From NCBI GenBank assembly GCA_044867525.1, contig JBIOVB010000024.1, positions 2,472 through 66,471 of the forward strand: 64,000 bases of DNA. Reading direction: 5' to 3'. Shown piece after piece: positions 9,129-43,564 of this stretch. The notes beneath the pieces are model-generated. The model ran no database searches. It saw only the letters and a list, made by a program, of their open reading frames with translations, and was not told where the DNA came from. Numbering within the stretch: the stretch's first letter is position 1; every line of letters starts with the position of its first letter. Origin of the DNA: Acidimicrobiia bacterium (GTDB taxonomy: Bacteria; Actinomycetota; Acidimicrobiia; Spongiisociales; ZC4RG35). A program made the translations under genes and the position numbers.

Positions 9129-10336
9129 TGGGCGGTTTCCTGTCTCGTAGGTAGGGGGATGGTGCGGAACCAGGTCCACAGGGTGAGGTCGTAGACGCTT
9201 TTGAGGAGACCGGCGATGAGAAATGGTGCCCCGGCGGTGGACACGGTGAAGAGGGCTCCGGCGAGCAGCGGTCCGAAGGGCCGGACCAGATAGCGTGTGG
9301 TGTTGGTGTAGGCGGTGGCGGCAGTTCGTTCTTCGGGCTCGACGAGAGTCATCACGTAGGCCTGACGGGTGGGGATGTCCATCTGGGAGAGAGCCGATCG
9401 GGCGAGTAGGAGTCCGGCGGCGACAGGAAGGTTGGGGGCGAAGGCGACGGCGGCGAGTAACAGGTTGGAGGGCAGGTGGGTGAAGACCATGGTGTTGAGC
9501 AGACCCCAGTGGCGGGCGATCACCGGTGCCGCCAGGAATGAGGCGGTCTGGACCACACCGATGGCCGCGAACAGGATTCCGATTGCGCCGGTGGTTGCGC
9601 CATGACGGTCGATGAGCCAGAAGGCGATGAACGTCTGGACTACGAACCCACCGGCGAAGGCGTCGAGGCCGAAGAGACCGGCGAGAAGGGTGACAGCACG
9701 TCGTGACCGGTCTAGCCGTGCAGGCTTGCGACGCCCGTCCGTCAACTCGACCGACTGGCTGAGGCGGCGGGCGATGATCACCCCGCAGGCGGCGATCGGC
9801 ACCAGCAGAAGGAACCACGGCCGGTCGGCGGGGGCTCCGACGAACAGGGCGCGGGTGAGTTGGGGGACAGCCGCGGAGAGTGCTCCGAATGCACCGGCGG
9901 CGGCGGCGATGGCGTTGTACCAGCCGAACCCGGTCGCGAGGGCGTTGGAGTCGAGCCGTCCGGAGAGCATCGACAGCTCGAGCGTGGTGAACGGACCGGA
10001 CTCGATCACCTCGGCTGAGAGAGCGCCCGTCAGCGCCACCGCCACCAACACCCAGAGCGGGGCCGTGCTCGCATAGACCAGCCCCGACAGACCAAGCAAC
10101 AGATACAAGGTCAGATAGCTGCGACGACGGCCCCAGCCGTCGGCCCAGCGGGCGATGGCCAGTTGGGCGATGACGCTGCCTGCGACCAGCGCTCCCAGCA
10201 CCACGCCGACGTTGATCGCTGAGAGGCCACGTTCGGCCAGGGTTGAGGCCAACAGCACCGACCCCAACCCATAGCCGAAAGCACGCACCGCCTGCGAGCT
10301 CAGCACCAGGCGAACGTCGGGCTCCGAAAGTCTCAC
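9125..10336 (-). CDS. MFS transporter
   Basis: About 12 hydrophobic segments. WADGWGRRRS loop motif between TM2 and TM3. GTG start. Confidence 0.85.
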   Translation of the reverse strand: MRLSEPDVRLVLSSQAVRAFGYGLGSVLLASTLAERGLSAINVGVVLGALVAGSVIAQLAIARWADGWGRRRSYLTLYLLLGLSGLVYASTAPLWVLVAVALTGALSAEVIESGPFTTLELSMLSGRLDSNALATGFGWYNAIAAAAGAFGALSAAVPQLTRALFVGAPADRPWFLLLVPIAACGVIIARRLSQSVELTDGRRKPARLDRSRRAVTLLAGLFGLDAFAGGFVVQTFIAFWLIDRHGATTGAIGILFAAIGVVQTASFLAAPVIARHWGLLNTMVFTHLPSNLLLAAVAFAPNLPVAAGLLLARSALSQMDIPTRQAYVMTLVEPEERTAATAYTNTTRYLVRPFGPLLAGALFTVSTAGAPFLIAGLLKSVYDLTLWTWFRTIPLPTRQETAQ

Positions 10337-10375
10337 CGTTGGCTCGCTGAGAGCTTCACGTCACATCTCAGGACC

Positions 10376-10434
10376 GTAAGCGTGGTTGCGCTGAGCATGC
10401 CCGTTCGAAGGTAGTAGCATGTAACCGTGGTTGC
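10376..10434. promoter_or_regulatory. Direct repeat GTAA(G/C)CGTGGTTGC at 10376-10389 and 10421-10434 in the divergent MFS/chrB-N intergenic region
   Basis: 13 of 14 positions identical. The second copy overlaps the GTG start at 10427. Confidence 0.4.
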
Positions 10435-10906
10435 AACAGAGAACTGGGTATTCCTCGTCTATCAGCTTCCCCGAGAGCCTTCCACCCCCCGCATCTCGGT
10501 TTGGCGCAAGCTGAAACGTATCGGTGTGGCTCAACTCGGCGATGGTCTGGTCGCCCTGCCCTACGACGCTTCGACCAAGGAGCAGCTCGAATGGGTCGCC
10601 CACCACGTCATGGAAGCCGGTGGTGAAGCGACGATCTGGATCACCACTCCCACGGTGCGAAAGTTCGGCCGCGGCCTCGCTCAAGGATTGGCCGACGAGC
10701 GGGCGGCAGAGTACCGAGCGGTTCTCGAACAGGCCGAAGCCGGTTTGGGGGCCGGACACGGCGAGCGGATCCGGGCCCTGCGACGCCTCCGCGCCGAGTA
10801 TCGGCGCATCGAACGTCGGGACTACTTCCCGCCGCCCGAGAAGGACGAGGCCAGGGCGGCCCTGGGGCGGATGGCCACCAGTCTCGAACCGGTACCGACG
10901 CCTTGA
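10427..10906 (+). CDS. ChrB N-terminal domain protein (putative regulator)
   Basis: WVFLVYQLPREPSTPRISVWRKLKRIGVAQLGDGLVALP is typical of the ChrB N-terminal domain. Confidence 0.75.
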   Translation: MVATENWVFLVYQLPREPSTPRISVWRKLKRIGVAQLGDGLVALPYDASTKEQLEWVAHHVMEAGGEATIWITTPTVRKFGRGLAQGLADERAAEYRAVLEQAEAGLGAGHGERIRALRRLRAEYRRIERRDYFPPPEKDEARAALGRMATSLEPVPTP

Positions 10907-11319
10907 GGTGGGCCACCCGGACCGGGGTCCATGTCGACCGGGCCTCCTCGGCCTGGCTGATCCGCCGATTCATCGACCCCGACGCCGAGTTCGTGTTCGT
11001 TGACGACCCCGACGATGTCCCCGCCGACGCAACCCCTTTCGACATGATCGGCGTAGAACTCACCCACCATGACGACCATGTCACCTTCGAAACCATCCTC
11101 GACCGCCACCACCTCGACGATCCGGTCCTCCACCTACTGGGTCAGATCATCCACGAAGCCGATGTCGCCGACGACCTCTACGACGCCCCCGAAGCAGCCG
11201 GCCTCGACGCACTGATCCGCGGTCTCTCCCTCACTGAAACCGATCCTGAGATCCTCACCCTGACCCACCGGCTCTTCGACGCCCTCTACATATGGCTCCA
11301 ACGGAGACAATCACCTTGA
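10903..11319 (+). CDS. ChrB C-terminal (chromate-resistance) domain protein, translationally coupled to the N-domain gene
   Basis: TTG start overlaps the preceding TGA (TTGA). AWLIRRFIDPDAEF and IIHEADVADD motifs. Confidence 0.75.
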   Translation: MRWATRTGVHVDRASSAWLIRRFIDPDAEFVFVDDPDDVPADATPFDMIGVELTHHDDHVTFETILDRHHLDDPVLHLLGQIIHEADVADDLYDAPEAAGLDALIRGLSLTETDPEILTLTHRLFDALYIWLQRRQSP

Positions 11320-11338
11320 CCACCAGGTCCAAGGCCGC

Positions 11339-11551
11339 TCAGGGTGCTGGCACCTGACAGTCGTCCATGGAACGAGCGCTGCCCTCGACCTCCCACAGCT
11401 CGGGTTCCGGAGCAGGAATCGGGTTGTCGTCGGTGGTCACGAAGCGCACCACGGCCCGGTACACGCCCTCGGCGTAAGCCTGGCGAAACTCGTCGGACAT
11501 GGCCAGGGCCTCCTCGGTCGGGTTGGAGAGATAGGCGCCCTCGATAATCAC
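11339..11551 (-). pseudogene. 3' remnant of an N-acetylmuramoyl-L-alanine amidase (Amidase_3-like) gene
   Basis: Translation VIIEGAYLSNPTEEALAMSDEFRQAYAEGVYRAVVRF matches only the last part of such amidases. An in-frame stop lies just upstream, with no catalytic N-terminal part. Confidence 0.55.
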
Positions 11552-11787
11552 CGCTGGCCCGGCGGCCAGTTTTCAGACCTTGCCGCTGAACCGTCCCGGG
11601 ACCACGAATCAGACGCTGGATCAGCGCTGTGCAGATCTCCAAGTCACTGTGTCAGATCCTGAAAGCCAAGTGACTGTTGGAAATTCGTCTGATCTGGCAA
11701 CCGACGGGATTGAGCGTCTGATATGGCCTAGCATGCTCTGTATCGGCTGGTCTTCGCCGGACACCCCTGCGATAATTGACGATTCCC

Positions 11788-11861
11788 GCGCCCGTAGCTC
11801 AATTGGATAGAGCGTCTGACTACGGATCAGGAGGTTGGGTGTTCGAGTCGCCCCGGGCGCG
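11788..11861 (+). tRNA. tRNA-Arg (anticodon ACG)
   Basis: Manual cloverleaf: acceptor GCGCCCG/CGGGCGC, D arm GCTC-AATTGGATA-GAGC, anticodon stem TCTGA/TCAGG with loop CTACGGA, variable AGGTT, T arm GGGTG-TTCGAGT-CGCCC. 74 nt, CCA not encoded. Confidence 0.9.
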
Positions 11862-12018
11862 CTGGCGAAATCCCATGCGGTGGCAGGGGATTTGACGTGT
11901 CCCGTGCTCGTTGAAGGCCCCGAGCGGGCCGACCTTTGGGAGCCATTCGTCCGATCGGACGTCGTCGATTCGGGAGATCACCCGGCTGTTGACACCCCCG
12001 ATGGGTGTGTCTTGCGGC

Positions 12019-12678
12019 TCAGCTCTCGTGAAGTCTGTGCAGATGGGCGATCTGCCCGTCTCGGTCGAAAACCATGATGAACTCTGCTGGTGTATCGATC
12101 GCATTGATGGAGTGGGGAGTCATGGTTGAGAACTCGGCCGCTTCCCCGGTGTCGACGATCACGAGTCTTTCGCCGAGGGTGAGCTCGAGCCGTCCGGAAA
12201 GTACGAACAGCCAGTCGTGACCAGGATGGATGCGCGGTTCAGGTCGCTGGGCTGTTGGTTCGAGTCGCATCTTGATGGCGGCGGTGCTGCTGGTTGGTCG
12301 GCTGAGCGGCCAGATGGTTACGCCGGTCCATCCACTGGGAGCGGGGCGGATGATTATGTCGTGGTTCTCAGCCACGTCGAGGAGGGAGCTCACGTCTACG
12401 TCGAGTGCTTCGGCGAGGGCGATCAGGATGTCGAGGCTGATGGATCGTTTGCCGGTCTCGAGGCGACTGATCGTGGACGCGCTGAGATGGCTGCGTTCTG
12501 CAAGGTCGTCAAGGGACCAACCACGTGTCCGGCGCAGGCTTCGCAGACGGGCGCGAGCGGTGGTTTCAACATCGTCGAATCCGGTGATGCCGCCATGATT
12601 GCCTTGGCTTGCGAATCCCGCAAACCATCTTGCCCGTAATGGGGATGCCGCCGTAGCGTCGCAGCTATGAAGAACCAC
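12019..12678 (-). CDS. XRE-family HTH + cupin transcriptional regulator (start uncertain)
   Basis: RGWSLDDLAERSHLSASTISRLETGKRSISLDILIALAEAL followed by a cupin-like C-terminus. The nearest in-frame start is GTG at 12678. Confidence 0.7.
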   Translation of the reverse strand: MVLHSCDATAASPLRARWFAGFASQGNHGGITGFDDVETTARARLRSLRRTRGWSLDDLAERSHLSASTISRLETGKRSISLDILIALAEALDVDVSSLLDVAENHDIIIRPAPSGWTGVTIWPLSRPTSSTAAIKMRLEPTAQRPEPRIHPGHDWLFVLSGRLELTLGERLVIVDTGEAAEFSTMTPHSINAIDTPAEFIMVFDRDGQIAHLHRLHES

Positions 12679-13284
12679 ATGCGGCCGGGCGACTGGGACG
12701 AGCACTACCGAAACCACGACCACCAGAGGTCGAGCGGTAAGCCCAACGAGGTGGTTGTGGCTGAGATGGCCGGAGAGCCTCCAGGTCGTGCGCTGGACGT
12801 TGGGTGCGGGGTGGGCAACGATGCGATCTGGCTGGCTTCGCAGGGCTGGAAGGTGACAGCAGTCGATATTTCGCAGGCGGCGCTCGATCTTGCCGCCAGC
12901 GCTGCAGACGACGCCAATGTCACCGTCGACTGGGCATGCGCCGATATCTCGACGGCTCCACCCGCAGCAGAAGAATATGACCTCGTCTCGGTCCAATATC
13001 CCGCACTGCGGCATGACCCTGGCAACGGCGTGATTCGTTCGCTCCTTGATGCGGTGGTCAGAGGAGGCACGATCCTGTTCGTTGGCCATGGCCCCGAAAG
13101 CCACGAATACGCACGGACCCAAGGCTTTGAACCCACCGATTACCTCGAGCCCGCTGACGTAGTCGCCCTCCTCGACGACAACTGGATCGTCGAGACCCAC
13201 GAGACCCGTCCGCGCATCACACCAGCCGGCATCGGCTCGCCCGTCAGCCACGACACCGTTCTTCGGGCCCGCCGACGTCTCTGA
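12667..13284 (+). CDS. Class I SAM-dependent methyltransferase
   Basis: ALDVGCGVGNDAIWLASQGWKVTAVDIS (motif I and post-I). Confidence 0.85.
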   Translation: MKNHMRPGDWDEHYRNHDHQRSSGKPNEVVVAEMAGEPPGRALDVGCGVGNDAIWLASQGWKVTAVDISQAALDLAASAADDANVTVDWACADISTAPPAAEEYDLVSVQYPALRHDPGNGVIRSLLDAVVRGGTILFVGHGPESHEYARTQGFEPTDYLEPADVVALLDDNWIVETHETRPRITPAGIGSPVSHDTVLRARRRL

Positions 13285-13350
13285 TACGCAGCCCCGCACG
13301 AGCGCGCATGTCGCCCTCTCCGCTGGGAGCCAAGTTGGGAGCCATTACTT

Positions 13351-13438
13351 GTGGAATCGTGTGGACGCCGGTGGACTTCGGCGGACCCAGAGTCCTGTAG
13401 CGCCAAGCGCAGGTGGACCGCCGTGGACGCCCATGGAC
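13351..13438 (+). repeat. Seven GTGGAC-like hexamers in two blocks with exact 10-bp phasing
   Basis: Hexamer starts at 13351, 13361, 13371, 13381 and at 13413, 13423, 13433 (gtggaa, gtggac, gtggac, gcggac, gtggac, gtggac, atggac). Confidence 0.8.
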
Positions 13439-13451
13439 GGCGCTTGGCCAT

Positions 13452-13497
13452 CTACGGATCAGGAGGTTGGGTGTTCGAGTCGCTCCGAGCGCGCCAG
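13452..13497 (+). repeat. Direct repeat of the tRNA-Arg 3' half (att-like)
   Basis: 13452-13483 is identical to 11820-11851. Similarity continues to about 13497 with 2 mismatches. Confidence 0.85.
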
Positions 13498-13532
13498 GTA
13501 GAGCCGACAGGCAGGGTGATACCGTCAGCCGG

Positions 13533-14348
13533 ATGCCGAGCGTCGACGTCAACGGGCTCGAGATCGCTTACCGACGCGCCGGCTCGGGGCCTCCGCTCGT
13601 CCTTGCCCACGGCGGGGGTTCGGACGGGCGCGAATGGCGAGCGCAGCTTGAGGGCCTGGCCGGTGAGCTCACAGTGGTCGCTTGGGACGAGCCCGGCTCA
13701 GGTGGCTCCGAAGACCCGTCGAACGACTTTGGTCTCGCCGATTATGCGGATGCTTTCGCCGGCTTGATCGAGACGCTCGACCTCGCCCCCGCGCACATAG
13801 GCGGGCTCTCCTGGGGCGGGGTGGTCGCCCAGGAGACCTACCGCCGCCACGCAGACGTAGTACGGACGCTGATCCTCTGCGACACGTACGCGGGCTGGAA
13901 GGGATCACTGCCAGCTGAGGAGGTGGAGGCGCGCCTAGCGGGCGTGCTGGAGAGCCTGGACGCTCCTGAAGACCAGTTCCGGCCCGTGATCCCGGGGCTG
14001 TTCGCCGCAGCCCCGGGTCCCGAGGTTGTCGCCGAGCTCGCCCGGATCGAGGCCGACGCTCGCCCCCAGAGCTTCCGTCGACTGGTGACTGCGATCGCCG
14101 AGTGTGACCTGCGCGACCTGCTCCCGCGGATCGCGGTGCCGACCCTCCTTATCTGGGGCGAGGAGGACGCCCGCTCTCCGGTGGTGAGCGTGGCCAAGCA
14201 GTTCCACGATGCGATCCCTGGCGCGGAGCTACGGCTGATCTCTGGCGCGGGCCACATGTCGAGCATGGAACGCCCTACCGAGTTCAACCGGGCAATCCTT
14301 GAGTTCACTCGGGCGCACGCCACGGGTGTCTTCAAGGCCGAGGCCTGA
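13533..14348 (+). CDS. Alpha/beta hydrolase
   Basis: ATG at 13533. LVLAHGGG and nucleophile elbow GLSWGG. The longer ORF would run through the tRNA repeat. Confidence 0.85.
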   Translation: MPSVDVNGLEIAYRRAGSGPPLVLAHGGGSDGREWRAQLEGLAGELTVVAWDEPGSGGSEDPSNDFGLADYADAFAGLIETLDLAPAHIGGLSWGGVVAQETYRRHADVVRTLILCDTYAGWKGSLPAEEVEARLAGVLESLDAPEDQFRPVIPGLFAAAPGPEVVAELARIEADARPQSFRRLVTAIAECDLRDLLPRIAVPTLLIWGEEDARSPVVSVAKQFHDAIPGAELRLISGAGHMSSMERPTEFNRAILEFTRAHATGVFKAEA

Positions 14349-33580: not shown

Positions 33581-34639
33581 TCAGGTCTCGAAGGCGGACA
33601 AGATAGCCATCACGTCCTGGCCCAACGACTCGAGGTGATAGCCGCCTTCCTGGATGAGGACCGTGGGGAGGCCGAGCGAGACGATGGCATGGCCCGCCAT
33701 CGCGAAACCTTGGTTGGTCACCCGGAGCGGGCTCTCGGGATCGGACGCACCTGCATCAACGCCCAGGGAGACCACCAGGACCTCGGCGCCCAGCCCGTCC
33801 ACCCACTCGCAAGCCCGAGCCAGGTTGTCGGTGAACACGCCATCGCCCGAACCGGGGGCCATCGGCAGGTTGAGGTTGGCGCCTCGGCCCGGTCCCAGAC
33901 CGATCTCGTCGTCGAACCCGCACCAGTGGGGGAACCAGCCCGCTCCGGGATCGACATGTGTCGACACGTAGGCGACCTCGGATCGCTCGTAGAAGATCTC
34001 CTGGGTCCCGTTCCCATGATGGGCGTCGATGTCGAGGATGGCCACTCGCTCCACCCCATTCCGGATCAGCCACTGCGCGGACACCGCGGCACTGTTCAGG
34101 TAGCAGGATCCGCCGAAATACCTGCTCCCGGCATGGTGCCCCGGTGGCCTGACCGGCGCATAGGCGGCACGGGCGCCGGCGCGGACCAGGCCTGCCGCGG
34201 TGAGGGCGCCGTCGACCGCGGCGCGGGCGCCCTGGTAGGTCCCGGGACCGATGACTGTTGCGGTGTCCATGCAATACACGCCGGCCATGGCCGCCCGGCT
34301 CGTTGGCAGTCGCACCGGGTAATGACGCACCGCCGCCGGGTGGGGAAAGGCATAGGCCACCACCCGGTCGACGCCGGGGTCCTCGTGGTACCCGGCCTCG
34401 ATCCACCGGGCATGAGCCGTCTCCAGGTAGTCGATCATCCCTTTGTCGTGCACTGCCTCGATATCACGCCGATCCTGGGCCTCGGCCTCGACGATCGGGA
34501 CGCCGTGCTCCTCCAACGCACCCTTGAGAATCAGAGCCCGATCGGCTTCCTCGTCGCCGGGCAGTCGGGCACCGACCCACACCAGCCAGTTGGCGTCGTG
34601 GGCCAGATAGCCCTCAGACCACACAGCGGTGAGCGTCAA
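33581..34639 (-). CDS. Histone-deacetylase-family amidohydrolase (acetylpolyamine/acetoin-utilisation type)
   Basis: RPPGHHA, DIDAHHGNGTQEIFY, SLGVDA motifs. TTG start overlaps the upstream stop. Confidence 0.88.
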   Translation of the reverse strand: MTLTAVWSEGYLAHDANWLVWVGARLPGDEEADRALILKGALEEHGVPIVEAEAQDRRDIEAVHDKGMIDYLETAHARWIEAGYHEDPGVDRVVAYAFPHPAAVRHYPVRLPTSRAAMAGVYCMDTATVIGPGTYQGARAAVDGALTAAGLVRAGARAAYAPVRPPGHHAGSRYFGGSCYLNSAAVSAQWLIRNGVERVAILDIDAHHGNGTQEIFYERSEVAYVSTHVDPGAGWFPHWCGFDDEIGLGPGRGANLNLPMAPGSGDGVFTDNLARACEWVDGLGAEVLVVSLGVDAGASDPESPLRVTNQGFAMAGHAIVSLGLPTVLIQEGGYHLESLGQDVMAILSAFET

Positions 34640-35943
34640 GGCAGTGCTTCCAGGGAGAGGCTGAGCCGGTCGACTATCAAGTCGACCTCATCATCGAGGA
34701 GTGTGAGCGGAGGGCCGATAAGCAGGAAATCACCGTTGGTGCCGTCGGCATTCCCGATGGAGGGATAGAGGAGCAGCCCGTTCTCCTTTGCCCGGCCAAC
34801 GATTCTCTCCGCCACCCGCTCCGACCTCTGGTACGGGCTCTTGCTTGCCCGGTCCGCGACCAACTCGACGCACGCGAAGAGCCCCTTCCCCCGAACGTCA
34901 CCCACCCGGGGGTGGTCGCCGATGGCTCGCCGCAGTCCTTGGAGGAGGCGTTCCCCCTGAGTGCGTGACCTGTCGATCAATCGAAGGCTTTTGATACGGT
35001 CGAGAACCGCCAGCCCTACAGCCGCCCCCACCGGGTGATGGGACCAGGTGAAACCGTGGATGAGGCCACCACCCTCGCTGATGGTGTCGTGGACTCCTCC
35101 GGAGCTCACCGCCAGACCAATCGGCCAGTAACCGCTGGAAGCACCTTTTCCCGCCACCAGGAGGTCCGGCTCGAGGTCGTAGTGATCACTGGCGAACCAT
35201 TCACCGGTCCTCCCGAAGCCGGTCATCACCTCGTCGGCGATGATGAGGACCCCGTGGCGACGGCAGATATCGGCAATCATGGCCCAGTAGCCATCTGGTG
35301 GAAGCGCGGCTCCACTGGCGGCGCCTCCTATCGGCTCCACCACGAAGGCGGCGACCCGATGGGGCCCGACCTCATGGATCGTCGACTCCAAGGCGGCGGC
35401 ATGCCACGCCGCACACTCCTGGGGATGATCGGGGTTCGGGCACCGGTATTCGCCGACACCAGGCACCCGTACCGTTTGACCGAGCCAGGGGAGATAGGGA
35501 CTGCGCAACGCCTCACGCCCCGACACGTCGAGGGCGCCCCGGGTGTTGCCGTGATACGAAGAGCCGCGAGCGATGATCACCGAGCGCTCGGGACGTCCCG
35601 CGGCGAGGTGATAGGCCCGCGCCATCTTGAGAGCGGTTTCCATCGCTTCCGAGCCCCCGGACACCGGGTAGACCCTCGCCTCTCCCATCGGCACCAATGC
35701 GACGACCTCGGCGGCGTATGCCTCCATCGCATCGGTGGTGAAGGCCGAGCCATGGACGTAGGACAGTTTCGCCATCTGTGCTGAGACCGCCTCGGCGATG
35801 CCTGCATCGCCGTGTCCGATCCCGACGACGATCGCCCCACCGGCCGCGTCCAGGTATTGCTTTCCGTCGCGGTCGGTAATCCAGGCACCACTGGCGGAGA
35901 CAGCCGTCGGCAATCCCACGCCGCGGGAAAACACCGAGCTCAT
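34636..35943 (-). CDS. Class-III (omega) aminotransferase
   Basis: ATG at 35943. SGGSEAMETALK and ADEVMTGFGRTGEWFA motifs. Confidence 0.88.
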   Translation of the reverse strand: MSSVFSRGVGLPTAVSASGAWITDRDGKQYLDAAGGAIVVGIGHGDAGIAEAVSAQMAKLSYVHGSAFTTDAMEAYAAEVVALVPMGEARVYPVSGGSEAMETALKMARAYHLAAGRPERSVIIARGSSYHGNTRGALDVSGREALRSPYLPWLGQTVRVPGVGEYRCPNPDHPQECAAWHAAALESTIHEVGPHRVAAFVVEPIGGAASGAALPPDGYWAMIADICRRHGVLIIADEVMTGFGRTGEWFASDHYDLEPDLLVAGKGASSGYWPIGLAVSSGGVHDTISEGGGLIHGFTWSHHPVGAAVGLAVLDRIKSLRLIDRSRTQGERLLQGLRRAIGDHPRVGDVRGKGLFACVELVADRASKSPYQRSERVAERIVGRAKENGLLLYPSIGNADGTNGDFLLIGPPLTLLDDEVDLIVDRLSLSLEALP

Positions 35944-36019
35944 CGTGGCTGGGGCGGGATCATCGGGTTGGGCACGATAGGCCCCGAGGTACCGTGCCGA
36001 TCCGAAAGGTGGTGACGAA

Positions 36020-37087
36020 GTGGCCAGGCTCAGGGATATCGGTGCCGGTATCGGCACCCTCCGAACGGGCCAAACCAATGGCATCACCGACGTGCCCGGA
36101 GTCCTCGTCGGGCATCAAACGGTTGTCCGCGATGAGCCCTCTGTGATCCGCACCGGGGTCACCATGGTCGTCCCCCGTGAAGGAGGGATTTGGACCGATT
36201 ACGCATACGCCGGCTCATTCGTCTTCAACGGAAATGGTGAGATGACCGGGCTCCCCTGGGTCGAGGAATCGGGCATGCTCGGCTCTCCGATCGGCTTGAC
36301 CAGCACTTTCCAGGTGGGTCTGGTCCGCGACTTCCTTGCCAAGGAGTCGGTCAGGGTCGGGGTCGTCGACGACTTCATGCTCCCGGTGGTCGGCGAGACC
36401 TGGGACGGCTGGCTCAGTGACGGCGCGGCCTTCCCCCTCACCGACGGCGACGCCGAGCAAGCTCTCCGGTCGGCGGCAGGCGACGTGGTGGTCGAGGGTG
36501 CCGTTGGTGGCGGCACCGGGATGATCTGTCACGAGTTCAAGTCAGGGATCGGGACCTCTTCGCGGGTTGTCGACCTCTTGGGGCGCGAGTACACGGTCGG
36601 GATCCTGGTCCAGTCCAACTACGGGAGCAGGGAAGACCTGCGCATACGGGGGATTCCGGTCGGACGGTTGATCGACACCGCGATGGTCCCGTCTCCCTGG
36701 GATGAGGCCCCAGCCGGGGGCTCGATCATCGCGATCATCGCAACCGATGCTCCGCTCCTCCCCGGCCAGTGCAAGAGGTTGGCGAGGCGGGCCACCGTCG
36801 GGCTGGCCCGCACCGGGGGTTACGGTCACGATTCGAGCGGGGACATGTTCCTGGCGTTCTCGACGGGCAACCACCTGGAAGAGCGGCCGGGCAGGTTGCG
36901 GGAGGTCAGTTCGCTGCCAAACGAGTCGATGGACCCGTTGATCCATGCCGTCGCCGACGCCACCGAAGAGTCGATCGTGAATGCCCTGCTCGCCGCGGAG
37001 ACGATGACCGGGCATTTGGGTCGGGTCGCCCACGCCATTCCGCTGGAGCGAGTACGGGAGATCCTGGGCAGCGCGACCCTGCCCTGA
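36020..37087 (+). CDS. DmpA/BapA-type (S58, Ntn) aminopeptidase
   Basis: [13 protein letters not shown], and the self-processing region [14 protein letters not shown] start with AAGGTGG SD. Confidence 0.82.
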
Positions 37088-37100
37088 TCAACCGATCGGT

Positions 37101-38495
37101 TCAGGCGGATTGGTCTTCGGCCGCCGTCGAGGTCGGCAGATGGCTGGGGAGCCGGGCACGGAATGTGGTCCCGTCGGCACCGGTCTCGAAGTCGAGCTGT
37201 CCCCCGTGGCGGGCCACGATGGAGTGCACGGTGGCCAGGCCGAGGCCGGTTCCCTGCCCCGGCTCCTTGGTGGTGAAGAACGGGTCGAAGATCCTCGAGG
37301 CGACTTCGTCAGGTATCCCGGAGCCGGTGTCGCCGATGGTGACCACGACCCCGTCACCATCTCCCTTGGCGGTGATCCTCAAGGTGCCTGCCCCACCCAT
37401 TGCGAATATGGCGTTGTCGATCAGGTTGATCCATACCTGACTCAACTCTGCCCCATATGCCTCGATGGAGGGCAGGTCCGGGTCGTAGTCCTTTTCCAGC
37501 TTGGTCCCCGTCTTCAACTTGTGCTTGACGAGAACCAGCGCATTGTCGATCGACGCCCTCACATCAACCGACTGCACCGAGCCCTGGTCGAGGTAGGAGA
37601 ACTCCTTGACCGCCTGGATCAGCTCCGAGACCCGATCGGCCCCGATCTTCACCTCCTTGGAGACCTGGATCCCCAGAAGCCGGAGCCCCAGCCAGCGGAG
37701 GAGATCGGCGCGGCTCTCGGGATCGGTGCCTCCTGCAACCTCGGCTAGAGACTCCGCTGTCCACCCGGCGTCGAGCAGTGGCGGCGCCAGCTCCCAAGCG
37801 TCCTTGACTCCCTGCTCGGAAAGCCAATCTCCAAGTGTGTCCTCTGCGTCGGCGCGGGCCACGGCACTCATCTCCGCATCGGCTGCCTCCGGGGGGAGCT
37901 CTTCGGGGAGAGGGATCCCCTTCGCCGACAACCTGCGGGCGGTGTCCCCGAGGTGTTCGATGATCGCGCCGCTGGCGTTGGTGCCATGGCGTACGGCAGC
38001 CATCGGGTTGTTGAGCTCGTGCATCAAGCCGGCTGCCATCCGGCCCAGGCCGGCCATCCGCTCCTCGCTCCGGACCAGGGTCTCCGTCTCCCTGAGCCGG
38101 GAGGTGACCATCCTCAACATCTTCAGGACCAGTGTCGGGTTCTCCAGGAGCTCACCAAAGGTCTCGGAGGGGACTTTGATGTATTCGACGTCGGTGAGAG
38201 CGGTGACACTGGCGATCCGGGGCACGTCGTCGAGCAGAGAGATCTCGCCCAGTACCTGCCCCGCGCCAACCCTGGCCACAGAGATCACCCGACCCCCGCT
38301 GAGCTTGGTCACTTCCAACTCGCCGTCGGTTACCACGTAGAGACCATCGCTTCGTGACCCCTCTTCGATGATGACCTCGCCGGGCGCGGCATGCAGCTGT
38401 TCGGAGGCGATGCAAACCCTCAGGAGCAGGCGCTCAGGAAGGTCGGCGAAGTAGGGCAGCTTCTTCAGCTGATCGAAGATCGAGATGTCGTTCAC
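37101..38495 (-). CDS. Cyclic-nucleotide-binding domain + histidine kinase
   Basis: GTG at 38495 overlaps the upstream stop (GTGA). cNMP motif [18 protein letters not shown]-box [17 protein letters not shown] and GTGLGL boxes. Confidence 0.85.
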
Positions 38496-40144
38496 AAGCC
38501 GGCCAGGTGCTCGTGGATGAAGCGGACCGCCATCGCCCCTTCGCCGGTCGAGGAGGCGACCCGCTTCACGGAGCCATGACGGACGTCGCCGGCCACGAAG
38601 ATCCCCGGGACCGAGGTTTCGAAGGGCAGCGGGGACCTCTGGATGTTCCAGCCCTTGGGGTGGGGACCGCAATCGGAGCCGGAAAGGATGAATCCTCGAT
38701 CGTCACGGTCGACGTCGGCGCCAATCCAATCGGTTCGTGCCGACTGGCCGATGAATATGAACACCGCCCCGGCGGGGACGACCTCGGTCTCACCGCTGTC
38801 GAGGTCCTTGAGGACCAGTTGTTCGAGGTGGGTGTCACCACGCGCCTCGACGAGTTGGGACCGATAACGGACGAAGATGTTGTCCTCGGCCGCGATCGCA
38901 TCGATCAGGTACTGCGACATGAAATCGGCCAAGGTGTCGCCCCTGACCAGGATGGTGACACTGGACCCGAAATGGCCGAGGAACATGGCTGCCTGTCCGG
39001 CGGAGTTCCCGGCGCCGATGATGAACATCGGCTCATCGCGGTGGGCGGCACCCTCGATCCGGGAGGTCCCGTAATAGACCCCGGCTCCGGTCAGGTCCTC
39101 GACTCCCGGGGCGTCGAGCCTGGTGTAGGAGACCCCGGTGGTGATCAGCAACGCCTTGGTGCTGACCTCGGAGCCGTCGCTGAAGCCGACGGTCCGGAAC
39201 GGGTCGTTCCTGGTAACCGAGACCACTTCAGAGGGGGTGAGGATCTCAGCCCCGAATCGCGTGGCCTGGGTGACGGCCCGTCGAGCCAGATCGCTGCCGC
39301 TGACCCCCTTCGGAAACCCGAGGTAGTTCTCGATGCGCGAGCTCTGTCCCGCCTGACCGCCGGGAGCCTCGCTCTCGACGAGCAGGGTGGTCAGACCCTC
39401 CGAGGCCCCGTAGACCGCAGCGGCAAGACCTGCGGGACCGGCCCCCACGATCACAAGGTCGTAGGCAGGCTGGGCCGGTTGGGTCCTCAGACCGATCGCT
39501 CCCGCGATGTCCGACAGCGAAGGCTGGATCAAGGAGGATCCGTCCGGCAACAAGACAACCGGGAGCAGGGCCGTGCCCACGCCGATGTCTCCGAGGATGA
39601 CCTCCGCCTCCTCGTCGGTCCCGACGTCCAAGGACCGATAGGGGACCTGATTCCGGGCGAGAAATGCCCTTGTCTCGTGGGTGGCCCGGCCCCACCGGTT
39701 CCCGATCACGGTTATCCCCTCGAACCGGGGCACGAAACCGGACCACCAGTCCTCGAGGAGGTCGTCGACGATCGGGTACAACCTCTCCTCGGGCGGGTCC
39801 CAGGGTTTCATGATGTAGTGGTCGAGGGAGACCTCGTTGATCGCTGCGATGGCCGCCTCGGTGTCGGCGTAGGCCGTGAGCAGGGCCCGCTTGGCATCCG
39901 GGATCCGATCGATGGTCTGAGCCAGGAATTGGATTCCTGTCATCTCCGGCATTCGCTGGTCGACGAGGAGGAGCGCTATCGGCTCGTTGCGCAGGTTGAG
40001 CTCGCGCACCGCCTCCAGGGCTTCGGCACCAGATGCCGCGGCGACCACCCGATAGTCCTCGCCGTACTGGCGACGTAGGTCCCGCTGTACCGCGCGCAGC
40101 ACTTCTTGGTCGTCGTCGACGGTGAGGATTACGGGCTTGGGCAT
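38492..40144 (-). CDS. Fused response-regulator receiver / glutaredoxin-like / thioredoxin-reductase-like flavoprotein lacking redox cysteines
   Basis: Receiver motifs TVDDD, LLLVDQRMPEMTG, YIMKPW. Middle domain ITVIGNRWGRATHETRAFLARNQVPYRSLDV. VIVGAGPAGLAAAVY, GGQ, IIGAGNSAGQ, GIFVAGDV. The CxxC position reads YGTSRIEG. Confidence 0.85.
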   Translation of the reverse strand: MPKPVILTVDDDQEVLRAVQRDLRRQYGEDYRVVAAASGAEALEAVRELNLRNEPIALLLVDQRMPEMTGIQFLAQTIDRIPDAKRALLTAYADTEAAIAAINEVSLDHYIMKPWDPPEERLYPIVDDLLEDWWSGFVPRFEGITVIGNRWGRATHETRAFLARNQVPYRSLDVGTDEEAEVILGDIGVGTALLPVVLLPDGSSLIQPSLSDIAGAIGLRTQPAQPAYDLVIVGAGPAGLAAAVYGASEGLTTLLVESEAPGGQAGQSSRIENYLGFPKGVSGSDLARRAVTQATRFGAEILTPSEVVSVTRNDPFRTVGFSDGSEVSTKALLITTGVSYTRLDAPGVEDLTGAGVYYGTSRIEGAAHRDEPMFIIGAGNSAGQAAMFLGHFGSSVTILVRGDTLADFMSQYLIDAIAAEDNIFVRYRSQLVEARGDTHLEQLVLKDLDSGETEVVPAGAVFIFIGQSARTDWIGADVDRDDRGFILSGSDCGPHPKGWNIQRSPLPFETSVPGIFVAGDVRHGSVKRVASSTGEGAMAVRFIHEHLAGL

Positions 40145-40148
40145 CTGC

Positions 40149-40421
40149 TCAGATGAAGCGGTCGTCCGGGTAACACCATCTCCAGACCTCGCCAGGCTCG
40201 AAACTGCGCACTATCGCGTGCTCGGTTGCCGCTGCGTGCTTGCGGGCATGTGTGTTCTTCGACTGGTCACAGCAGCCGACGTTCCCACATACCAGGCAGA
40301 GACGGAGATGGACCCAGGTGTCACCGACGGCGAGGCACTCTCCGCAACCCTCACCGGCCGCCTCTACCTCCTGGATCATGTCCACGTGCTCGCACGGGGC
40401 CAGCTCACGTTGCCAGGACAT
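40149..40421 (-). CDS. UBP-type zinc-finger protein
   Basis: ATG at 40421 preceded by GGGAGGA. CEH...CGEC...HLRLCLVCGNVGCCD...H..KH pattern. Confidence 0.8.
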   Translation of the reverse strand: MSWQRELAPCEHVDMIQEVEAAGEGCGECLAVGDTWVHLRLCLVCGNVGCCDQSKNTHARKHAAATEHAIVRSFEPGEVWRWCYPDDRFI

Positions 40422-40515
40422 GATTGCGAATCCTCCCTTGACCGACGATCGACGCAAATCTAGGCCCTCTGCCCGCCGCGGGGCGCCGGGGCTTGCTCGC
40501 TCCTAGGCTCTGCGA

Positions 40516-41493
40516 ATGGTGGCGATCATCGGGTTCGGCGGGTATGTGCCGGCGCGGATCATGACCAACGAAGAATGGGCGGAGTTGGTCGACACGTCCG
40601 ACGAGTGGATCACCCAGAGAACCGGGATCAAGCGTCGCCGGGTGGCCGCGCCCGACGAGACCACGCTCACCCTCGCCGCCAACGCCGCGGAGTCGGCGAT
40701 CAAGGACGCGGGGCTGATTCCCGCCGACATCGGCGAGATCATCGTCGCCACCGACACCCCCGAGCTGTACACCCCGGACACTGCCGCGCTCCTCCAGGAC
40801 CGGCTGGGCTGTGATCACGTGCCCGCCTATGACCTCGGCGGCAGCGGCTGTGCCGGGTTCGTTCAAGCGCTCGACATCGCAAGGGCCCGCATCACGTTCG
40901 CTCCGAGGAACACCCTGGTGGTGGGTGTCGAGCTGATAACCAGGCTCATCGACTGGACAGACCGGGCCACCGCGGTCCTCTTCGGGGATGGCGCAGGTGC
41001 TGTGGTGCTCGGACCGGATCGGGGTCGCGCCGAGCTGCTCGACGTGGTGTCGGGCACGGATGGCGCCCTGGCCGACATCCTGACCCTGGCCACGGGCGGC
41101 ACCCGCAACCCTTTCAACGCGGAGGCGCTGGCCACCGGCGCCCACAAGAGATTGGTGATGGACGGTCGCCGGGTGTTCGTCGAGGCAGTGCAGCGAATGG
41201 GCTCGTCGGTTGAGGACCTGCTGAGCCGAATCGGCCGCACCACCGACGAGGTCGCCCTGGTGATCCCTCACCAGGCCAACTTGCGGATCATCGAGGCGAT
41301 CCGGAAACGCCTTGGGCTCCGGGACGATCAGGTCTACGTCAACATCCACGAATACGGGAACACCGGGTCGGCCACTGTGCCTTTCGCCCTCTCGGAGGCG
41401 ATGGGCAGCGGTCGCATCAGAGAAGGTGACCTGGTGGTGCTCACGGCATTCGGAGCCGGCCTCCACTGGGCGTCGGCGGCACTCCAGTTCTGA
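40516..41493 (+). CDS. fabH: Beta-ketoacyl-ACP synthase III
   Basis: SDEWITQRTGIKRR, GGSGCAGF (Cys), IPHQANLRII (His), EYGNTGSATVP (Asn). Confidence 0.9.
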   Translation: MVAIIGFGGYVPARIMTNEEWAELVDTSDEWITQRTGIKRRRVAAPDETTLTLAANAAESAIKDAGLIPADIGEIIVATDTPELYTPDTAALLQDRLGCDHVPAYDLGGSGCAGFVQALDIARARITFAPRNTLVVGVELITRLIDWTDRATAVLFGDGAGAVVLGPDRGRAELLDVVSGTDGALADILTLATGGTRNPFNAEALATGAHKRLVMDGRRVFVEAVQRMGSSVEDLLSRIGRTTDEVALVIPHQANLRIIEAIRKRLGLRDDQVYVNIHEYGNTGSATVPFALSEAMGSGRIREGDLVVLTAFGAGLHWASAALQF

Positions 41494-41501
41494 TCGATAT
41501 C

Positions 41502-41548
41502 AAATTGAGGGCAGGAGCATTCGTCACGAATGCTCCTGCCCTCAATTT
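41502..41548. terminator. Perfect 21-bp stem-loop between convergent genes (bidirectional terminator candidate)
   Basis: AAATTGAGGGCAGGAGCATTC...GAATGCTCCTGCCCTCAATTT. The right arm overlaps the stop codon of the minus-strand regulator. Confidence 0.7.
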
Positions 41549-42201
41549 CGGGGGCGCTCGTCGTCGGGTCTGACGTAGCCCTGGTCATATGCCAGCGCCG
41601 TCAACTCGTGGCGTGATGCAACGCTCAGCTTCTCGAAGATGTGAGCCATGTGGTTCTCCAGGGTCTTGACCCGGATTCCCATTCGGGACGCAGTCTCTCG
41701 ATAGGTGTAACCCCGGGCGATCAGGTTCACCACCTCCCGCTCCCGTGGGGTGAGCCGCGAGATCGAAGACTCGGCCACGATGTCCTCGTCGATGTCGAGC
41801 AGGTAGCCGGCGACGTCGGGTGAAACCGGGCGCGCCCCCTCATATGTCTGGTAGATCAGAGCGGGAAGGTCGGTGCCCAGCGTCGTCTTCGTGATGTACC
41901 CGTCGACACCTGCCTCCATGAGACGGGCTACGTCCTCCCGCGACGTGGAGACGGTGAGTGCCATGAAACGGACATCGGGCTGTCCGGGTCGCACGGCGTC
42001 GATCACCGAGGCCCCGCCGCCTCCGGGGAGCTTCACGTCGAGGACCACCAGTTGTGGTGCTCGCTCCCTGATGAGCTCGATGGCGCTGTCCACATTGTCG
42101 GCCTCGCCGACGATGTCGAAGGACTGGTCGAGGAGCGCCCGCATCCCGGCTCGCACCACATCGTGATCGTCGACGAGGAGGATGCGCAGCTGGTCGTCCA
42201 C
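41542..42201 (-). CDS. NarL/LuxR-family response regulator
   Basis: ILLVDDHDVVR, VVLDVKLPGGGG, and C-terminal LTPREREVVNLIARGYTYRETASRMGIRVKTLENHMAHIFEKL. Confidence 0.92.
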   Translation of the reverse strand: MDDQLRILLVDDHDVVRAGMRALLDQSFDIVGEADNVDSAIELIRERAPQLVVLDVKLPGGGGASVIDAVRPGQPDVRFMALTVSTSREDVARLMEAGVDGYITKTTLGTDLPALIYQTYEGARPVSPDVAGYLLDIDEDIVAESSISRLTPREREVVNLIARGYTYRETASRMGIRVKTLENHMAHIFEKLSVASRHELTALAYDQGYVRPDDERPRN

Positions 42202-42204
42202 TGG

Positions 42205-43386
42205 TCAGACCTCGACGGTGATCTTGATCTCGGTTCCTGCTTCGTGGTTGGAATCGATGTCCACGACGCCACCAACCCCTTCGACTCTCTTCGCCAGGCG
42301 CTCGTGGACTCGGGCTCGCATCCCGTCGTTGATGAAGCCCGATCCACGATCCCGGACATGGATGTGGGCGTCGCCGTTGTTGAACTCGGCGTAGAGCGCG
42401 ATATTGGGCGACCCGGAGTGCTTGGCAGCGTTGGCCAATGCCTCTCGGGCGGCTTCGATTGCAGCAGCGAGACTCGGGCTGAGCTGGGCGTCATCCCGGA
42501 TCACCGCCTCGATCTCAACCCGGTGGGTGTCTTCGATCTCGTCGCGCACCGCCAACAGGGATGCCCGGAAGCTATTGGGGAATTCGGAGCGCCATTCTTC
42601 GATGTTGCGGCGGAGCTCGCGTTCCTGGCGCCTGGCCAGGTATCTCGACTGGGCGGGGTCGTCGGCACCCATCCGGATGGCGTGGAGGGTCTGCAACACC
42701 GAGTCGTGCAAACGGTCGGCGAGGACAGCTCGCTGCTCGTGGAGGAGAACCACGGCCTGCTCCTCGGCGAGACGGGCCTGTGCTTCCTGACGGGCTATGT
42801 CGTAGTCCCGCAGCTTGTCGAAGGTCCATCCCACGATTGCTCCCACGACGAAGAAGATGACGCTTCCCGCTGCCCTCACAGCACCGAGTTCGGCGATGAC
42901 GTGAACCAGGAACTGTTCGACACCGAGCACCAGGGCGGCAAGCAGCGAGCCGGGCAAGCCTCCCACCAGCGCCCCGGTGAACACCAAGGAGAGCGGAAGC
43001 CCGCCGTGGAACAGCTCTTCGGCGCCGGATGCCACCGAGGCGGCCCCGATGGCGAGCATGGCGACCGCGTCGAGCAGGAACCACCCCATCGACGACATCG
43101 CCTGGGGATGGGCATGTGCCATGTACCACGTGAGCAGGGTCCAGGAGACAGCCAAGCCGGCCGCGGCGTACACGATCCAAATCGTCGGCGGCGGGTCGAC
43201 GGCGATGGTTATCGCCACCAGGATCAGCATCCAGATCAGGCCCAGGAAGCGGAAGAGGACCACCATTCGACGCAGGGTGGTCTCCAATTCGGGACTGCCC
43301 CGGTGTCGGAATCTGGCGGCGATCATTGGCGTCGAAGCTAGTGGTTGAGGCGGGGGTGGGGGACCGGGGATCGCAAATTCTCGCAT
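42205..43386 (-). CDS. Sensor histidine kinase (HisKA_3 / NarX-DesK type)
   Basis: ATG at 43386. Several TM segments. H-box LADRLHDSVLQTLHAI. NAAKHSG and DRGSGF boxes. Confidence 0.85.
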   Translation of the reverse strand: MREFAIPGPPPPPQPLASTPMIAARFRHRGSPELETTLRRMVVLFRFLGLIWMLILVAITIAVDPPPTIWIVYAAAGLAVSWTLLTWYMAHAHPQAMSSMGWFLLDAVAMLAIGAASVASGAEELFHGGLPLSLVFTGALVGGLPGSLLAALVLGVEQFLVHVIAELGAVRAAGSVIFFVVGAIVGWTFDKLRDYDIARQEAQARLAEEQAVVLLHEQRAVLADRLHDSVLQTLHAIRMGADDPAQSRYLARRQERELRRNIEEWRSEFPNSFRASLLAVRDEIEDTHRVEIEAVIRDDAQLSPSLAAAIEAAREALANAAKHSGSPNIALYAEFNNGDAHIHVRDRGSGFINDGMRARVHERLAKRVEGVGGVVDIDSNHEAGTEIKITVEV

Positions 43387-43564
43387 GGTGTGACCGAACC
43401 CTCGACCCGAAACGAAGGCCGAGGGGGACCGTCGAAACGGTCCCCCCGCGGATCCCCATTGTCGCTTCGAGGGACGTGGTTTCCCTGAAGTCCCTTGGCC
43501 ATCATCGTGTCGGTCCCGGGAATCCGGTATGGGGGATGTTCCCCCCATCCCCGACCCTGTCCCG

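Follow-up and report, generated by a model that had tools for sequence, protein, structure and literature searches.

A three-gene acidimicrobial operon encoding a UBP-type zinc finger, a receiver-fused thioredoxin-reductase-like flavoprotein without redox cysteines and a histidine kinase with a cyclic-nucleotide-binding domain

We analysed a stretch of 64,000 nucleotides (nt) from the genome of an Acidimicrobiia bacterium (assembly GCA_044867525.1, contig JBIOVB010000024.1, positions 2,472 to 66,471 of the forward strand), referred to here as the window. Positions 37101-40421 of the window hold three co-directional minus-strand genes, which encode a UBP-type zinc finger (ZnF-UBP), a flavoprotein of 550 amino acids (aa) and a histidine kinase:

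40149-40421, minus strand: ZnF-UBP gene, first gene of the operon, ATG start, product of 90 aa
38492-40144, minus strand: 550-aa flavoprotein gene, encoding a receiver (REC), a mycoredoxin-like domain and a thioredoxin-reductase-like (TrxR-like) domain
37101-38495, minus strand: histidine kinase gene, GTG start, soluble product of 464 aa with an N-terminal cyclic-nucleotide-binding (cNMP-binding) domain

A Shine-Dalgarno sequence, AGGGAGGA, precedes the ATG of the ZnF-UBP gene, the stop of which is separated from the 550-aa gene by four nucleotides (gcag); the TGA stop of the 550-aa gene shares a GTGA overlap with the GTG start of the kinase gene. The operon is bordered upstream by a divergent FabH-like gene and downstream, 13 nt off, by a convergent S58-peptidase gene. 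A preliminary description of this DNA had pointed out the tight linkage of the three genes, which these coordinates confirm, and every motif that it quoted is present exactly as written. The gene order and the 4-nt overlaps are repeated in relatives at 60-85% identity: the three-gene signalling operon is real and not a chance arrangement. Scanning positions 36800-40800 for promoters and terminators was uninformative, since it returned no promoter-like site and five terminator-like matches that all lie within coding sequence.

Pfam identifies a Response_reg domain (1.2e-15, aa 6-119) and a Pyr_redox_2 domain (1.3e-33, aa 228-536) in the 550-aa protein, which can be divided as follows:

39770..40144, minus strand: receiver domain, aa 1-125, with the phospho-acceptor D62 at 39959-39961
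39491..39715, minus strand: mycoredoxin/glutaredoxin-like domain without cysteines, aa 144-218, with WGRAT for WCGYC
38495..39469, minus strand: TrxR-like two-domain module for flavin adenine dinucleotide (FAD) and NAD(P)H, aa 226-550
39053..39082, minus strand: former redox-disulfide site, aa 355-364, where GVYYGTSRIE replaces GVSACATCD

The receiver scores 58 bits against the PF00072 cutoff of 30.2, and its D10, D11, D62, T90 and K113 are invariant or nearly so in a 60-sequence alignment (A1); the acidic pocket and the LVDQRMP aspartate (D62) noted in the preliminary description are therefore conserved features of the family. The module that follows matches TrxR structures at 2e-41 with about 30% identity (phmmer) and scores 209.7 bits with the NCBIfam TrxR model TIGR01292, under its cutoff of 343.45, while the middle domain gives a weak match to the mycoredoxin model TIGR02200 (6.2e-7, aa 144-216). 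In the AlphaFold2 (AF2) model of the protein, which is of high confidence (predicted local distance difference test score, pLDDT, 87.9; predicted template modelling score, pTM, 0.80), the receiver is followed by the middle domain, with a beta-alpha-beta-alpha-beta-beta-alpha order consistent with a thioredoxin fold, and then by a TrxR fold. Foldseek searches with this model returned AhpF as the best full-length match (E 2.5e-27) and TrxRs with target template modelling scores (TMt) of 0.86-0.91. Identity across phyla averages 60% for the receiver, 63% and 53% for the two parts of the FAD domain and 39%, the lowest value, for the mycoredoxin-like domain; the 63% identity of the FAD domain, together with about 50% overall, points to strong purifying selection on the output.

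The alignments place no cysteine at either of the two sites where thioredoxin-fold and TrxR-fold ancestors carry their CxxC motifs. Aligned to solved TrxRs and to E. coli TrxB, GRGVSACATCDG lies opposite GAGVYYGTSRIEG, GAGVYYG-TSRIEG faces GRGVSA-CATCDG, and C135 and C138 of TrxB correspond to T360 and I363, while the HRRD of TrxB aligns with VRGD. No cysteine was found in the old CxxC segment of the 550-aa protein, and none at either of the two cysteine columns in 145 family modules. A family profile of the middle domain built from 23 diverse relatives (A6) matches mycoredoxin-1 of M. tuberculosis (Mrx1, 2LQO) at 7.6e-9, and in the profile alignment the W-C-G-Y-C of Mrx1 faces W-G-R-A-T in the window protein and W-S-P-x-S in the family consensus, so that this domain has no glutaredoxin CxxC or CxxS, the site being GRAT in the window protein and SPxS in its family. 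The two ancestral dithiol centres have thus both been lost, and the sequence evidence supports the conclusion that the flavoprotein output cannot do dithiol-disulfide chemistry. The preliminary description had reached the same view from a glutaredoxin-fold segment without CPYC, a TrxR active site without CxxC and a VRG in place of HRR; profile alignment and structure prediction agree with it on each point, with both CxxC motifs absent and the folds as expected.

The FAD and dinucleotide motifs are retained. GxGPxG, GGQ, IENYLGFP, GxxNSAGQ, R401 and GD are at least 97% conserved over the 145 modules, and the window protein carries GAGPAG, GGQ and GIFVAGDV for FAD and GAGNSAGQ for the dinucleotide, as had been claimed for it. 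R401 is the counterpart of E. coli R176, in the site for the 2'-phosphate of NADPH; of the HRRxxxR residues it alone is conserved. A family motif, G-x-G-[VI]-[YF]-Y-G-x(4)-E, occupies the old disulfide site; its Y358 is at least 97% conserved, and its Glu takes the position of the TrxR acid-base Asp. Conservation extends to the C-terminal end of the protein (H544, L547 and L550). Five residues past the old second cysteine, 83% of the 145 modules have one cysteine at a column where the window protein has His368 (39041-39043, minus strand). In the window's clade the residue is His, in other members without the cysteine it is Tyr, Thr, Val, Phe or Ala, and true TrxRs have an aromatic residue at the aligned position, so a cysteine there is not universally required, and the column was rejected as the seat of a hidden catalytic thiol.

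The third gene encodes the putative input of the system, in which two features stand out:

38199..38249, minus strand: phosphate-binding cassette of the cNMP-binding domain, kinase aa 83-99, canonical and intact
37722..37922, minus strand: three-helix insertion at the hairpin tip of the dimerization and histidine phosphotransfer (DHp) domain, kinase aa ~192-258, from the AF2 model

Pfam recognises a cNMP_binding domain (7.5e-20, aa 35-118; 71 bits against the PF00027 cutoff of 27.5) and a HATPase_c domain (9.4e-24, 84 bits) in the kinase, and its H159ELNNP H-box, N357/N361, DxGxG, F403/F406 and GxGxGL are conserved among the kinases of the family. The HisKA match is confined to 19 residues (aa 151-169) and stays at 18.7 bits, under the cutoff of 26.9, because the DHp insertion interrupts the domain. 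In the AF2 model the insertion helices (aa 211-227, 233-242 and 247-253) are flanked by the DHp helices of aa 143-191 and 259-302, with block-mean pLDDT values of 65-95 that are highest over aa 211-250. All 59 partner kinases found beside receiver-type flavoproteins keep this insertion, with the motifs SDxEDxLxxWLxxHG and WxLAxxLVxAG. A Foldseek search with the insertion returned ordinary kinases and protein kinase G only, and no recognisable structural relative; the insertion might offer a surface on which the flavoprotein or the zinc finger docks.

The cNMP-binding domain is present in 58 of the same 59 kinases. All of 45 relatives within the clade keep cassette residues G83, E84, R93 and A95, in keeping with the intact cassette reported in the preliminary description. 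Canonical cassettes are found in the window's clade and a few others, whereas in most partner kinases of other phyla (loci L004-L073) the cassette is degenerate, with the Glu lost and Tyr in place of Arg. Cyclic adenosine or guanosine monophosphate (cAMP or cGMP) is therefore not the ligand family-wide, and the sensor ligand probably differs between lineages. For this window the cassette sequence makes cAMP or cGMP a sound inference as the kinase ligand, for the whole family it does not, and the cNMP input proposed earlier stands as plausible within the window's clade. Genes for class III adenylate/guanylate cyclases flank the kinase-regulator pair in several relatives (L091:4695-5963 and 9137-13653, L092:3018-5639, L004:4325-5125), and some of these cyclases, in relatives of the window's clade, are fused to NB-ARC/STAND-TPR domains; taken with the invariance of the cassette, the flanking cyclases support genuine cNMP signalling in the clade. 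The cNMP domain of the kinase also matches NF058543 (Pat) at 3.3e-17. An anti-phage cNMP system (Pycsar/CBASS) was considered and rejected, as the PADLOC matches are limited to this same domain (aa 18-146).

Database searches with the 550-aa protein yielded at least 8,000 candidate relatives, all at E <=1e-10, of which the best 120 are full-length with at least 60% identity; at 50% clustering there are 3,326 representatives at E <=1e-30, ordinary TrxRs included. A scan with one genome per species gave 80 loci at about 50% identity. The family is found in Actinomycetota, Cyanobacteria, Chloroflexia, Bacteroidota, Acidobacteriota, Gemmatimonadota, Burkholderiales and a metagenome-assembled genome of the Tepidisphaeraceae (planctomycetes), and the pair of receiver-flavoprotein and kinase occurs in at least eight phylum-level lineages. 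A homologous kinase gene is adjacent and co-directional in 59 of the 67 receiver-type genome loci, often with the same 4-nt overlap, which bears out the kinase as the receiver's partner, as the preliminary description presumed. We defined neighbour families by clustering all open reading frames over 81 loci, ignoring antisense shadow clusters; the recurrent real families are the kinase, ZnF-UBP, EgtB/EgtD and a generic SDR. The conserved unit is thus the kinase plus the receiver-flavoprotein, with ZnF-UBP as a recurrent accessory. Conservation of the trio as a whole, raised as a check in the preliminary description, holds in part: the kinase-receiver pair is widespread, well beyond Actinomycetota, but ZnF-UBP accompanies it in only about 30% of loci.

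The receiver is not the only input to the flavoprotein module. In L074, L077-L082 and L089 a cNMP-binding domain replaces REC ahead of the same module, and in L065, L069, L072 and L076 the module lacks any N-terminal regulatory domain. When a metagenome scan was seeded with the cNMP type, 76 of 80 loci proved to be cNMP fusions, with no adjacent kinase. The direct fusions keep the G-E of the cassette, and their Arg is displaced by one residue. The existence of cNMP-fused and stand-alone relatives marks the module as a regulated output, and the domain architectures indicate that a single output is controlled through direct allostery in one branch and through a kinase-receiver relay in the other.

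The zinc finger encoded by the first gene is a clear member of its family (Pfam zf-UBP 6.7e-15; PF02148 55.5 bits against a cutoff of 22.7) and matches PDB 2IDA, a bacterial 'hypothetical protein' from structural genomics, at 9.9e-25. The family is very uniform: its invariants are H12, C26, C29, W36, H38, C42, C45, C50, C51, H58, H62, H68, W80 and C83, that is, 12 candidate zinc ligands and the tryptophans W36 and W80, all invariant or nearly so. Counting loci with adequate flanks only, 20 of 61 receiver-type and 14 of 47 cNMP-type loci have a ZnF-UBP gene at a distance of no more than 300 nt from the flavoprotein gene or the flavoprotein-kinase pair. Among the 20 loci per type that are positive for ZnF-UBP, 19 have it on the same strand, and its position varies from upstream of the regulator to downstream of the kinase. 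The zinc finger described earlier as co-transcribed does share the operon here, behind a 4-nt gap, and across the family it is not an obligate third member.

Gene contexts were also sampled for seven other members of the ZnF-UBP family. One of them (L089) lies beside a cNMP-flavoprotein fusion, and three have no evident partner gene. Two others belong to a four-gene operon (P0340, L174-L175, L174:4001-8264; P0325, L178-L179, L178:4001-8276) that encodes ZnF-UBP, a free-standing cNMP-binding protein of 139 aa, a flavoprotein of the Pyr_redox_3 type (481-507 aa) and a cyclase-STAND protein. The flavoprotein of the L174 operon was rejected as a member of the TrxR-like family (BLASTP E 0.09, Pyr_redox_3 type). 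Since this enzyme stands outside the family, the combination of ZnF-UBP, cNMP signalling and an NAD(P)H flavoprotein recurs independently. The seventh ZnF-UBP gene, in Geodermatophilus (L085:5001-6829, L086:2830-4658), abuts a Na+/H+ exchanger gene (5258/5258), and some JGI records label ZnF-UBP proteins 'monovalent cation/hydrogen antiporter'; the zinc finger might thus serve more generally as a small regulatory subunit.

The preliminary description had suggested recognition of a protein C-terminus as one role for the zinc finger. Compared with HDAC6, the bacterial protein keeps the pocket aromatics (W36, W82 and Y84). The ubiquitin C-terminal carboxylate is clamped in HDAC6 by R1155 and Y1156 (bioRxiv 10.1101/268557), and the corresponding positions are Q53, variable across the bacterial family, and S54, which is invariant. 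With the gatekeepers replaced in this way, it is doubtful that a protein C-terminus is bound as it is in eukaryotes, and no ubiquitin-like partner is evident for the bacterial ZnF-UBP.

A further recurrent association is with genes of ergothioneine biosynthesis. Of 161 loci, 11 (7 from genomes and 4 from metagenomes) have egtB and/or egtD adjacent to the module, and they cover both fusion types and three phyla. The genome loci are:

L014:2801-9054, L026:3359-9060, L063:3571-9085 and L025:1712-7656: egt strings
L035:6001-9046, L078:1915-6058 and L082:2912-7580: egt beside the flavoprotein gene

In three Acidobacteriota (L014, L026 and L063) and in a member of the Saprospiraceae (L025), co-directional genes run in the order egtB-egtD-ZnF-UBP, followed by those of the flavoprotein and kinase, the kinase gene coming ahead of the flavoprotein gene in L025. 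In a member of the Burkholderiales (L035) egtB immediately follows the flavoprotein gene, and cNMP-type fusions lie next to egtB or egtD in L078 and L082 and in the metagenome loci L130, L136, L143 and L147. NCBIfam cutoffs are exceeded by EgtB in L025 and L035 and by EgtD in L025 and L026; the sulfoxide synthases of the Acidobacteriota reach none of them (EgtB/OvoA/SenA-like). ZnF-UBP is present in 8 of the 11 egt-linked loci versus 36 of the 150 others (Fisher p = 0.0015, uncorrected for phylogeny). The recurrence of the linkage with both fusion types, in several gene orders and in three phyla, makes chance an unlikely explanation, and this linkage in other lineages makes thiohistidine (ergothioneine) redox metabolism one candidate field of action.

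Taken together, these observations lead us to propose, at a probability of about 0.5, that the operon encodes an NAD(P)H flavoenzyme, gated by phosphorylation, whose electrons go to an acceptor other than a protein disulfide. The operon would constitute a complete cytoplasmic two-component pathway with an enzyme, and not a transcription factor, as its output. Binding of cAMP or cGMP would alter autophosphorylation of the kinase, from which the phosphoryl group would pass to D62, and the receiver would then gate the domain rotation or dimer state needed for hydride transfer from NAD(P)H to FAD and onward. In the lack of a disulfide relay, and with the [YF]-Y-G...E motif presumably filling the old disulfide site, the reduced flavin would have to donate directly to its acceptor, which might be a small molecule, a metal or iron-sulfur protein, O2 or a quinone. 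ZnF-UBP would be an optional partner of the flavoprotein, perhaps an adaptor or a ligand-binding subunit. As specific acceptors within this general mechanism, thiohistidine-related species and ferredoxin or flavodoxin each appear improbable, and to a similar degree.

Several observations weigh against this proposal or narrow it. Two of the three arginines for the NADPH 2'-phosphate are lost with the change from HRR to VRG, which leaves the nucleotide preference, and even nucleotide binding, uncertain. Most family members keep a single cysteine near the old site, and the chemistry may therefore differ within the family. The 64-kb window contains neither a cyclase gene nor an egt gene, and the egt linkage is found in only about 7% of loci, mostly in Acidobacteriota.

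The main rival to a gated flavoenzyme is a pseudo-enzyme sensor, in which there would be no turnover and the bound cofactors would report the NAD(P)H/NAD(P)+ ratio or redox state by modulating the receiver or the kinase, as a phosphate sink or kinase regulator. Information would then flow in the reverse direction, from the flavoprotein into the phosphorelay. The loss of all four ancestral redox cysteines, the degraded NADPH 2'-phosphate motif and the fact that the operon shows no other evident output, DNA-binding or otherwise, speak for such a sensor. We nonetheless consider it unlikely, because the replacement of REC by a cNMP domain at the same position and the stand-alone forms mark the module as an effector, because the nearly invariant [YF]YG...E at the old active site is not expected from mere decay, and because the kinase already has a sensor domain of its own. 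At the opposite extreme, the protein could be an ordinary NADPH thioredoxin reductase fused to a receiver, as the JGI annotation of homologues ('thioredoxin reductase (NADPH)') implies and as the best PDB and NCBIfam matches, which are TrxRs, might suggest. This reading deserves almost no credence given the lack of a CxxC or of any cysteine near the site and the VRG in place of HRR; a canonical thioredoxin reductase is excluded at the sequence level by the missing CxxC and by a TIGR01292 score of 209.7 bits against a cutoff of 343.45.

Two further rivals concern the electron acceptor. The module might, with ZnF-UBP, act as a thiohistidine-cycle reductase that reduces oxidised ergothioneine species (a disulfide, a mixed disulfide or a sulfenic/sulfoxide intermediate) with electrons taken directly from the flavin and no enzyme thiols involved; the mycoredoxin-like domain, with Ser in place of Cys, would be the binding site. 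The co-directional egtB-egtD-ZnF-UBP-flavoprotein(-kinase) strings, the egt genes beside cNMP-type fusions and the enrichment of ZnF-UBP at egt-linked loci speak for such an enzyme; the phyla that carry the module family overlap the known ergothioneine-making phyla, and Bdr/YpdA, another enzyme of TrxR fold, reduces a low-molecular-weight disulfide without a CxxC. Set against the rarity of the linkage, its absence from the window and acidobacterial sulfoxide synthases that reach no NCBIfam cutoff, these points leave a thiohistidine-cycle reductase decidedly improbable, somewhat more so than the sensor. Slightly lower again we place a regulated ferredoxin/flavodoxin:NAD(P)+ oxidoreductase (FNR) like the TrxR-type FNRs of the YumC family, through which the phosphorelay would set the flux to a small iron-sulfur or flavin protein. 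FNRs of TrxR fold without CxxC are known, PDB entries of this kind were detected at 1e-10 to 1e-14, and the conserved C-terminal end (H544, L547 and L550) recalls the flavin-covering C-terminal tail of these enzymes. However, the module is far closer to true TrxRs (2e-41; TIGR01292 209.7 bits), no ferredoxin or flavodoxin gene was found among the conserved neighbours in the 81 clustered loci, and the fused mycoredoxin-like domain has no counterpart in FNRs.

A bolder extension of the phosphorylation-gated flavoenzyme would join it to the ergothioneine linkage. The cysteine-free mycoredoxin-TrxR-like flavoprotein, gated by a receiver or by a cNMP domain, and ZnF-UBP might together form a bacterial system dedicated to the recycling or control of ergothioneine and thiohistidines like it under a second-messenger switch, with the flavin reducing the oxidised thiohistidine directly and the ZnF-UBP pocket binding a betaine or carboxylate ligand; the ZnF-UBP pocket of HDAC6 accepts small carboxylates. 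We regard this as a speculative possibility with the odds well against it.

The genes around the operon in the window lie outside the conserved system. The flanking stretches (33581-37087 and 40516-43548) encode a histone-deacetylase-like protein, a class III aminotransferase, the S58 (DmpA-type) peptidase, the FabH-like ketoacyl synthase, and a LuxR-type response regulator with its kinase. These genes are syntenic in an 85%-identical relative (L093) and not in more distant ones, as expected of neighbours by descent. In two relatives at about 62-63% identity, the kinase-flavoprotein pair adjoins genes for a three-subunit molybdoenzyme of the xanthine/CO-dehydrogenase type (Fer2, MoCoBD, FAD_binding_5; L001:3895-7629, L092:9055-12789), and a universal stress protein gene likewise lies beside the pair.

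In the full-text literature, searched for REC/TrxR fusions, bacterial ZnF-UBP, cNMP-TrxR-like proteins and ergothioneine clusters, we found no functional study of this system, and for the REC-TrxR-like class no report of a function, a partner kinase or a chemistry, which agrees with the preliminary description's remark that it knew of no described function for the combination. The sole mention is a census of archaeal response regulators in which the 'REC + thioredoxin reductase' architecture is listed as 'Mycobacterium-like' (PMC5847659), so that the architecture itself has already been catalogued. New here are the coordinated disappearance of the two CxxC centres, a conserved cognate kinase of the cNMP type that carries a DHp insertion, the triad of REC, cNMP and stand-alone inputs, the partnership with ZnF-UBP, and the egt and cyclase linkages. 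Homologues carry the public names 'FAD-dependent oxidoreductase' and 'thioredoxin reductase (NADPH)', and the latter does not fit, as the proteins examined lack CxxC.

Two-component systems with non-transcriptional outputs are few. That this one has kept about 50% identity over at least eight phylum-level lineages despite having shed its ancestral chemistry suggests an important function that is not yet described. The system would connect second-messenger signalling directly with cellular redox or NAD(P)H metabolism, and it places the widespread ZnF-UBP proteins of bacteria, so far represented by a structural-genomics structure only, in a functional context for the first time. It also supplies a candidate for the enzymatic side of ergothioneine redox biology in bacteria, which to our knowledge is uncharacterised.

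Each part of the system has recognisable counterparts among known proteins. The module shares with TrxB (E. coli 1TDE/1F6M, T. africanus 7JYP) the two-domain FAD/NAD(P)H fold, at about 30% identity and TMt 0.86-0.91, and the motifs GxGxxG, GGQ, ENY.GFP, GxGNSA and GD; it differs in having [YF]YG...E for CxxC, VRG for HRR, a 16-residue insertion before GD, and the added receiver and mycoredoxin-like domains. AhpF likewise joins N-terminal thioredoxin-fold domain(s) to a TrxR-like C-terminal half, but it carries redox CxxC motifs in both halves and no receiver, whereas the 550-aa protein has lost all of those cysteines. TrxR-type FNRs (YumC family) and Bdr/YpdA resemble the module as TrxR-fold flavoproteins that work without a CxxC relay. 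The similarity is remote (FNRs at 1e-10 to 1e-14; TIGR04018 YpdA 57 bits against a cutoff of 339.9), and both lack regulatory and fused glutaredoxin-like domains. In the proposed gating of a fused enzyme by a receiver, the flavoprotein is comparable to CheB, to PleD/WspR and to REC-HD-GYP proteins such as RpfG. The zinc finger shares its Pfam family, zinc-ligand pattern and pocket aromatics with eukaryotic ZnF-UBP domains (HDAC6, USP5, USP16, USP20) and with the RPA1320-type protein 2IDA; where HDAC6 has its R1155/Y1156 clamp, the bacterial protein has a variable residue and an invariant Ser. Finally, control of an enzyme by a CAP/PKA-type cNMP domain recalls the mycobacterial cNMP-GNAT acetyltransferase Pat. 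Unlike in Pat, the cNMP domain encoded in the window is predicted to drive a histidine kinase and to reach the enzyme by phosphotransfer, direct fusion of a cNMP domain to the enzyme being confined to paralogous relatives.

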